Below are positions 49,052 through 49,722 of a stretch of DNA of 64,000 nt, in pieces. A program made the translations under genes and the position numbers. The stretch lies in the NCBI RefSeq assembly GCF_017348835.2, contig NZ_CP071375.1. The stretch is one strand, 5' to 3'. This DNA comes from Escherichia coli. GTDB lineage: Bacteria > Pseudomonadota > Gammaproteobacteria > Enterobacterales > Enterobacteriaceae. A model generated the notes under the pieces. It was not told the DNA's origin, did not search any database, and saw nothing but the letters and a program-made list of their open reading frames with translations. Numbering within the stretch: position 1 is the stretch's first letter; the number at the start of each line of letters is the position of its first letter.

Positions 49052-49722
49052 TCACCGCTGCGTCACCCCTTCGTAAATCAGGCGTAGCGCGAATACACCA
49101 ATAATTGCACCAATAACCCGACTGGCAACGCGTTGCATACGCCCATAAGCACGACGCACAGCGGGCAAAGAAAACGCCTGACTAAGAAAGACTCGCCAGA
49201 TAACTGATGCGAGCACAATCCCCGCCCAGGCCATTAAACGTGCCCATGTTGGTGTTTCGGCATTTAATGTTACTGAGAAAATACTGATAAAAAATAAAAC
49301 GGTTTGCGGGTTAGAGAGATCGGTAATTAATCCGCGGCGAAAAAAGACATACCAGGGGCGCTAATCGGTTGTTGTAGTGTGCTCATTTGCGGTGTTGACT
49401 GGCGGCGCATGCTACACCACGCAAACCATAAGAGATAAGCGCCGCCGACGATTCTGATAAGCGAAAAAATCTCCTCACACTGCGTAATTAGCGTTGCAAG
49501 ACCAAACAAACCCAACCCGGAATAAAATGCATCGCCCAGCGCCACGCCCAGTCCGGTCAGCACTCCTGCGCGTCGACCGGAAGCCAGGCTGGTTTGTACT
49601 ACCACAAAAAGATTGGCTCCCGGATTAAAAAAAGTAATCACGAACAGTCCTACGGTCAGGTAAACGGCGTGCAAAGGATCCATAGTGATTTCATCCATAA
49701 ATAAGTGAAGTAACTTCATCAT
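49052..49722 (-). pseudogene. yahN: LysE/RhtB-family amino-acid exporter YahN, frameshifted
   Basis: ORFs 49327..49722 and 49052..49234 are the two halves; frame breaks at a G4 run (49354..49357) where one extra G would restore a 223-codon frame. Confidence 0.75.

Follow-up and report, generated by a model that had tools for sequence, protein, structure and literature searches.

The yahN gene in the stretch of Escherichia coli DNA analysed here (64,000 nucleotides, referred to below as the window) is interrupted by a frameshift within a run of G residues. An earlier note had drawn attention to this frameshift and to two others associated with homopolymers, one in a recombinase gene and one in a gene described as a second LuxR regulator, and had asked whether this lineage is accumulating pseudogenes or whether the assembly carries homopolymer errors. 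The genes of the window are arranged in the order fdeC (eaeH), rclRABC, ykgEFG, an IS3 element, a remnant of the PAI-X (hyx) island, betABIT, the yah genes, prpRBCDE, codBA and cynRTSX. Tandem arrays of REP-type units of 93-94 bp are present at 38128-38395 (yahG/yahI) and at 57723-58061 (prpE/codB), with 2 and 3 matches, respectively, to Rfam naRNA4 (RF02564) above the gathering score. The gap between yahJ and yahK (~41050-46190) contains an ASCH-domain gene and a four-gene ABC transporter annotated as being of the autoinducer-2/sugar type.

The yahN pseudogene, assigned to the LysE family of exporters, occupies positions 49052-49722 on the minus strand and is 671 nt long, against 672 nt for the intact gene. 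The site of the -1 deletion is a G4 tract at 49355-49358 (C4 on the coding strand), where nearly all E. coli have G5. Over 801 bases compared, one missing G was the sole difference in yahN from the intact copy of strain F2_81 (WP_000976977.1). Comparison with F2_81 thus upheld the suggestion that a single missing G splits the gene; the run lies one base further right than had been proposed (~49354..49357). On the coding strand the window reads GCC CCT GGT in place of the intact GCC CCC TGG, and the frame is lost at codon 123/124. The N-terminal ORF (49327-49722, minus strand) encodes 131 aa, made up of 123 native residues and 8 out-of-frame residues (GMSFFAAD) followed by TAA, and YahN is therefore truncated after Pro123, the intact protein having 223 residues. 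The C-terminal remainder (49052-49354, minus strand) is out of frame with the N-terminal part, and its translation corresponds to residues 124-223 of intact F2_81 YahN; the list of open reading frames gives a C-terminal ORF at 49052-49234 on the same strand. A Dcm motif, CCAGG (within ACCAGGGG), directly precedes the G run (49351-49358).

Intact YahN matched Pfam family PF01810 over residues 29-219 with a score of 201.7 bits. The N-terminal ORF of the window scored 103 bits over residues 29-120, corresponding to profile positions 2-93 of 193, and both proteins were above the gathering cut-off of 25.6 bits. A complete domain in a single frame (profile ~1-193) was not found in YahN of the window, the rest being out of frame. 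YahN would be an amino-acid exporter by family assignment, and the truncated protein, which lacks the second half of the LysE domain, is probably inactive. In principle, transcriptional slippage or ribosomal frameshifting at the tract could still yield full-length YahN. The frame downstream does remain open, but nothing beyond that favours such a rescue, and the frame is open because the lesion is young, the gene being otherwise identical to that of F2_81. Moreover, the site (A GCG CCC CUG GUA) does not contain a slippery heptamer of the form X XXY YYZ, and a 4-base G/C run is far below the tract lengths known to support transcriptional slippage. We regard rescue of the reading frame as scarcely credible. 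The PGAP label for the gene in strain PE164 (LZG51_RS18915) is 'LysE family transporter; frameshifted', and the breakage of yahN is thus already known, since standard annotation captures it.

Strain PE164 (NZ_CP114128.1), isolated from a pig with diarrhoea in Nanjing, is the nearest complete genome, and the sequence of its whole yahN gene, including G4, is the same as that of the window. It has been described as an O108:H9 aEPEC/ExPEC hybrid (PMC12233904). That study sequenced 29 strains by Illumina NovaSeq with Unicycler assembly; how the complete PE164 chromosome was produced is not explicit there, and we did not take the statement as proof of the platform used for PE164. Over the window, PE164 differed by an IS1 insertion and 2 SNPs (15934 and 63901), with zero indels besides, and it has every indel of the window. 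The insertion, an IS1B element at window position ~9641-9649 with a 9-bp target duplication, truncates an aldo/keto reductase gene (837 nt vs 870 nt), and the site is empty in both the window and F2_81. Both SNPs are nonsynonymous, giving YkgF G223A (15934) and CynX G274R (63901). An exact look-up in a large public assembly collection returned no record of the YkgF G223A variant of the window. The next relative, F2_81 (NZ_CP043542.1), from an Australian pig, differed by 14 SNPs and 5 indels over 64 kb, and every other complete genome showed at most 97.9% identity in the island region.

We then examined the remaining lesions of the window. Of the four frameshifts, three belong to an accessory island that the IS3 insertion had already disrupted. 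The gene order of PAI-X, ipbA(fimX)-hyxR-hyxA-hyxB between betA and ykgH/ykgG, was found in the window, and all four genes align to the island of the meningitis isolate MS21199. An IS3-family element at 17807-19020, which contains an ALIL frameshifting pseudoknot (Rfam RF01497) at 18623-18739, occupies the place of ykgH and most of hyxB in intact islands. The same gene order is seen in the intact PAI-X of ExPEC strains such as MS21199, UTI89 and CFT073, with 96-98.6% nucleotide identity for ipbA, hyxR and hyxA; in the window, however, only hyxR of the four genes is unbroken. Tracts in the island were judged by alignment to the intact genes of MS21199 and of O157:H7 strain 2571.

The recombinase gene is ipbA (fimX/hbiF), which encodes a tyrosine DNA invertase; its pseudogene (22306-22866, minus strand) aligned with the intact MS21199 gene at 98.6% identity and with 2 gaps. 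Its frameshift does fall in the plus-strand A7 tract reported earlier, located at 22519-22525 (coding T7, codon 114), where MS21199 has A8. This tract length is common to the window, F2_81 and O157:H7, the match to EDL933 extending over 73 bases with no gap, and PGAP labels ipbA 'frameshifted' in PE164, F2_81 and O157:H7. The intact IpbA protein matches the Pfam family Phage_integrase. A second lesion, a 2-bp (TA) deletion with its junction at 22360-22361, affects the Arg-Tyr codons of the HTVRYT motif, close to the C-terminal end; it is private to the window/PE164 sub-lineage and was seen also in the draft assembly GCA_019365205.1. The tyrosine of this motif is presumably the catalytic one, as in tyrosine recombinases generally, but the older frameshift lies upstream of the deletion, which consequently adds nothing to the damage.

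The hyxA pseudogene (20269-21029, minus strand) is 761 nt long, compared to 762 nt for the intact gene. An A5 tract followed by G's was found at 20791-20795 (codon 80; coding T5 vs T6 in the intact gene), in agreement with the A5G3 run mentioned for the 'second LuxR' gene. The LuxR label itself did not hold. Intact HyxA gave no Pfam match at E<0.01 and thus no GerE/LuxR domain, while HyxR itself matches GerE, and BLASTP detected no similarity between HyxA and HyxR (E=0.26). The gene that does belong to the LuxR family is hyxR (21183-21977), which is unbroken in the window. PGAP labels hyxA 'frameshifted' in PE164 and F2_81, and the gene is intact in MS21199 and O157:H7 strain 2571. Among 1866 genomes carrying hyxA, an exact 73-mer with the A5 tract was present only in PE164 and F2_81. 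The 5' remnant of the autotransporter gene hyxB (19737-20227, minus strand), which is truncated by IS3 so that the first 492 nt are left, contains a further frameshift of this type, the fourth; here the window has C3 at 19763-19765 and O157:H7 has C4. PGAP describes this remnant as 'adhesin; frameshifted; incomplete'. Finally, fdeC/eaeH (4145-8398), a gene for an inverse autotransporter adhesin that is intact in MS21199 and O157:H7 strain 2571, contains a TAG amber stop at 5045-5047 (plus strand), after codon 300. PGAP records it as an 'internal stop' in PE164 and F2_81, and fdeC of the window showed no difference from that of F2_81.

To decide between inherited mutation and assembly error, we relied on assemblies other than that of the window. 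The draft GCA_019365205.1, found via the BetI sequence of the sub-lineage, was 100% identical with zero gaps over 18998-37706 and has all the island tracts, the 2-bp deletion and an extra 8-bp unit described below; its contig stops at the IS3 border, as is usual for short-read contigs. Two assemblies found via PrpE I202 covered yahN: GCA_050373515.1 was 100% identical over 45812-64000 (18,189 bp) with G4 present, and the Logan assembly of SRR9990285 was 100% identical over 45812-57752 (11,941 bp), again with G4 and with a 118-aa LysE gene called. A search with the 118-aa YahN product retrieved GCA_032490275.1, which was 100% identical over 46327-52683 (6357 bp) including G4. Some of these concordant draft and Logan assemblies could share one BioSample. 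The yahN G4 nevertheless occurs in two or more genotypes that can be told apart by SNPs and IS1: the window and GCA_050373515.1 have A at 63901 (the CynX allele) and PE164 has G, and G4 is therefore not a property of one isolate or one assembly. F2_81, an independent complete genome from another continent, shares the homopolymer lesions in ipbA, hyxA and hyxB as well as the fdeC amber. Agreement between the assemblies thus makes it highly probable that the lesions in yahN, ipbA and hyxA are genuine and inherited, and not sequencing errors.

The association of the frameshifts with homopolymers is beyond chance. Runs of at least 5 bases make up 2.45% of the window, and the chance that three random single-base deletions would all fall inside them is ~1.5e-5. 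Replication slippage and sequencing error both predict such a bias, however, and the bias alone cannot therefore separate them. Under-calling of homopolymers in long reads, with the genes really being intact, would account for the fact that every lesion is a -1 change in a homopolymer. The Dcm site abutting the yahN tract could be read in the same way, since Dcm-site context leads to systematic errors with older nanopore basecallers. In addition, the truncated yahN product occurs in two noisy long-read assemblies, L015 with 9 and L016 with 20 gap positions over 6.3 kb. The Dcm context may be the reason for its appearance in these two assemblies, but both fall within or close to a K-12-like clade in which the G4 allele is real. 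Against under-calling, zero indel differences were found across the tracts from 4-5 other assemblies, including drafts broken at IS3 and Logan contigs. Of 295 runs of at least 5 bases, 3 differed from F2_81 and 0 from PE164, which is not the pattern of an assembly with frequent homopolymer errors. F2_81 has the tract lesions of both ipbA and hyxA, and finished O157:H7 genomes have that of ipbA. Systematic error would moreover scatter over lineages, and yet G4 is restricted by clade, the 5 carriers among 5036 complete genomes including four from one clade. We consider under-calling very improbable. The lesions being real, the remark that the fdeC (eaeH) amber, as a substitution, is less prone to artefact becomes moot, as none of the lesions is an artefact.

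Sequencing error might also be suspected because indels are over-represented against SNPs on the common branch of the window and PE164. Polarised by outgroups over 64 kb, this branch has 6-8 SNPs and 4-5 indels, a higher ratio of indels to SNPs than the roughly 1:5 to 1:10 of mutation-accumulation experiments; the F2_81 branch has 4 SNPs and 0-1 indels, and the window has 2 nonsynonymous SNPs of its own. The indels of the shared branch are T7->T6 at 22243, the TA deletion, an extra 8-bp unit at 22943 and yahN G5->G4. Three of these are confined to 700 bp in and around a dead gene, and each of the three was found in the independent draft GCA_019365205.1. They form a cluster of private derived indels around ipbA (22243-22967, ~700 bp; the TA deletion at 22360) without an accompanying SNP, the 8-bp unit being a third copy of ATCTCATT at 22943-22967 where F2_81, MS21199 and O157 have two. 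Import of the cluster by recombination was considered and rejected, as no complete genome besides PE164 carries it; in the absence of a donor lineage the indels are private and derived, not imported. An intergenic A8 at 19686-19693 is A9 in F2_81; the outgroups differ here (CAAAAAGCC), so that a change of A9->A8 is possible but unpolarised.

The distribution of the lesions among relatives gives their order. The ipbA lesion, common to O157:H7 and the window, is the deepest; those in hyxA, hyxB and fdeC are common to F2_81 and the lineage of the window; and that in yahN is confined to the PE164 sub-lineage (the window and PE164), F2_81 having G5 and an intact gene. Their ages are thus nested, with ipbA the oldest, hyxA, hyxB and fdeC next and yahN the youngest. 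The degraded PAI-X of O157:H7 resembles that of the window in that it adjoins betA, has the ipbA T8->T7 change and carries an IS3-family insertion in hyxB (IS1203 in O157:H7). The two differ in that O157:H7 has an intact hyxA and a broken hyxR (internal stop), whereas hyxA is broken and hyxR intact in the window. Outside the island, yahN is the sole frameshifted gene of the window, and fdeC there has the amber. This is ordinary gene decay and not an unusual accumulation of pseudogenes. Of the two possibilities raised at the outset, assembly error is thus contradicted by the zero gaps against independent assemblies; the pseudogenes are real, but to describe the lineage as accumulating them overstates the case.

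The yahN deletion was not restricted to the porcine sub-lineage. An exact 72-mer with G4 was present in 5 of 5036 complete genomes, namely PE164 and four K-12-like strains; exact-match counts of this kind are lower bounds, as divergent flanking haplotypes are not counted. The K-12-like carriers (L005-L008) are 19SZHZ886Rt, S163-2, TUM9754 and DETEC-P61, from Shenzhen, Guangzhou (two) and Japan. In these genomes the genes flanking yahN are without frameshift and PGAP labels yahN 'frameshifted'. They share with the window the 72-mer, the 118-aa product and the PGAP label. Unlike the window, all four have an internal stop in yahG (locus positions 12392-13810), and they lack the ABC-transporter insert between yahJ and yahK. 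The yahG stop identifies the four genomes as a single clade, which has a few pseudogenes of its own among the yah genes. The ASCH/ABC-transporter insert is absent from this clade, where only a 75-nt gene fragment is found. Their yahN and that of the window differ at 9 sites, which lie to either side of the tract. These flanking differences, together with the identity of the window yahN to that of F2_81 except for the run, indicate at least two independent origins of the deletion. The yahN G4 is also present on a third haplotype, a mosaic one (L012; GCA_038072365.1). Among public assemblies, the truncated YahN of 118 aa (start at MDPLH) was found in 283 blocks, and exact-product searches for the 131-aa and 123-aa forms gave no match.

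Recurrence of the same deletion may indicate that loss of YahN is advantageous, its inactivation being favoured in certain gut- or animal-associated clones with the G5 run as the preferred mutational route. Fixation of an identical deletion on at least two unrelated haplotypes, perhaps three with the mosaic one, and the occurrence of the truncated product in 283 assembly blocks would fit such convergence. The allele is nevertheless very rare in complete genomes (5/5036), mutation bias would by itself lead to recurrence at the position most prone to slippage, and the unrelated yahG stop of the K-12-like clade is consistent with general drift. Convergent adaptive loss is accordingly unlikely in our estimation, although less so than the other alternatives weighed here, and none of the observations calls for it. 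A frameshift within a coding mononucleotide run that recurs could also indicate a phase-variable contingency locus, in which slipped-strand mispairing at the G tract switches yahN on and off. The ancestral tract is, however, only 5 bases long, and G4 was uniform in every sampled member of the sub-lineage. A G6 version of the tract was found in none of the 5036 complete genomes, and almost all genomes with the flanking haplotype of the window yahN have G5. Phase variation can be given almost no weight.

We favour instead replication strand slippage in mononucleotide runs, with the products escaping mismatch repair, as the probable origin of yahN G5->G4, ipbA T8->T7, hyxA T6->T5 and the C4->C3 change in the hyxB remnant. 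The mutations would then have been fixed clonally because the genes are dispensable: yahN would be dispensable as a gene for a non-essential exporter of the LysE/RhtB type, and ipbA, hyxA and hyxB as parts of the accessory PAI-X (hyx) island, which had previously been truncated by IS3. Fixation would on this account have been neutral. According to a passage of PMC5854121 citing Lee et al. 2012, most indels are of a single base and fall in simple repeats, at a rate that grows with run length. Slippage events in mutation accumulation, as reported in that passage, are likewise single-base and concentrated in homopolymers; the events of the window differ in being fixed in natural clones, in affecting dispensable genes only and in being deletions in all four cases. 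The FimX/IpbA recombinase and the HyxR regulator have roles in uropathogenic strains, and FimX regulates HyxR (PMC7545054), and decay of PAI-X in an intestinal, porcine background is unremarkable.

As a matter of quality control, the pseudogene calls for yahN, ipbA, hyxA, the hyxB remnant and fdeC can be accepted at face value, and the homopolymers of the assembly can be trusted. The yahN G4 allele is a clean marker of the PE164-like porcine sub-lineage with respect to F2_81. The nested lesions provide a small relative timeline of the decay of PAI-X in a non-uropathogenic background. Lastly, recurrence of the yahN deletion represents a modest case of mutational homoplasy, which could mislead phylogenies or pass for sequencing error.
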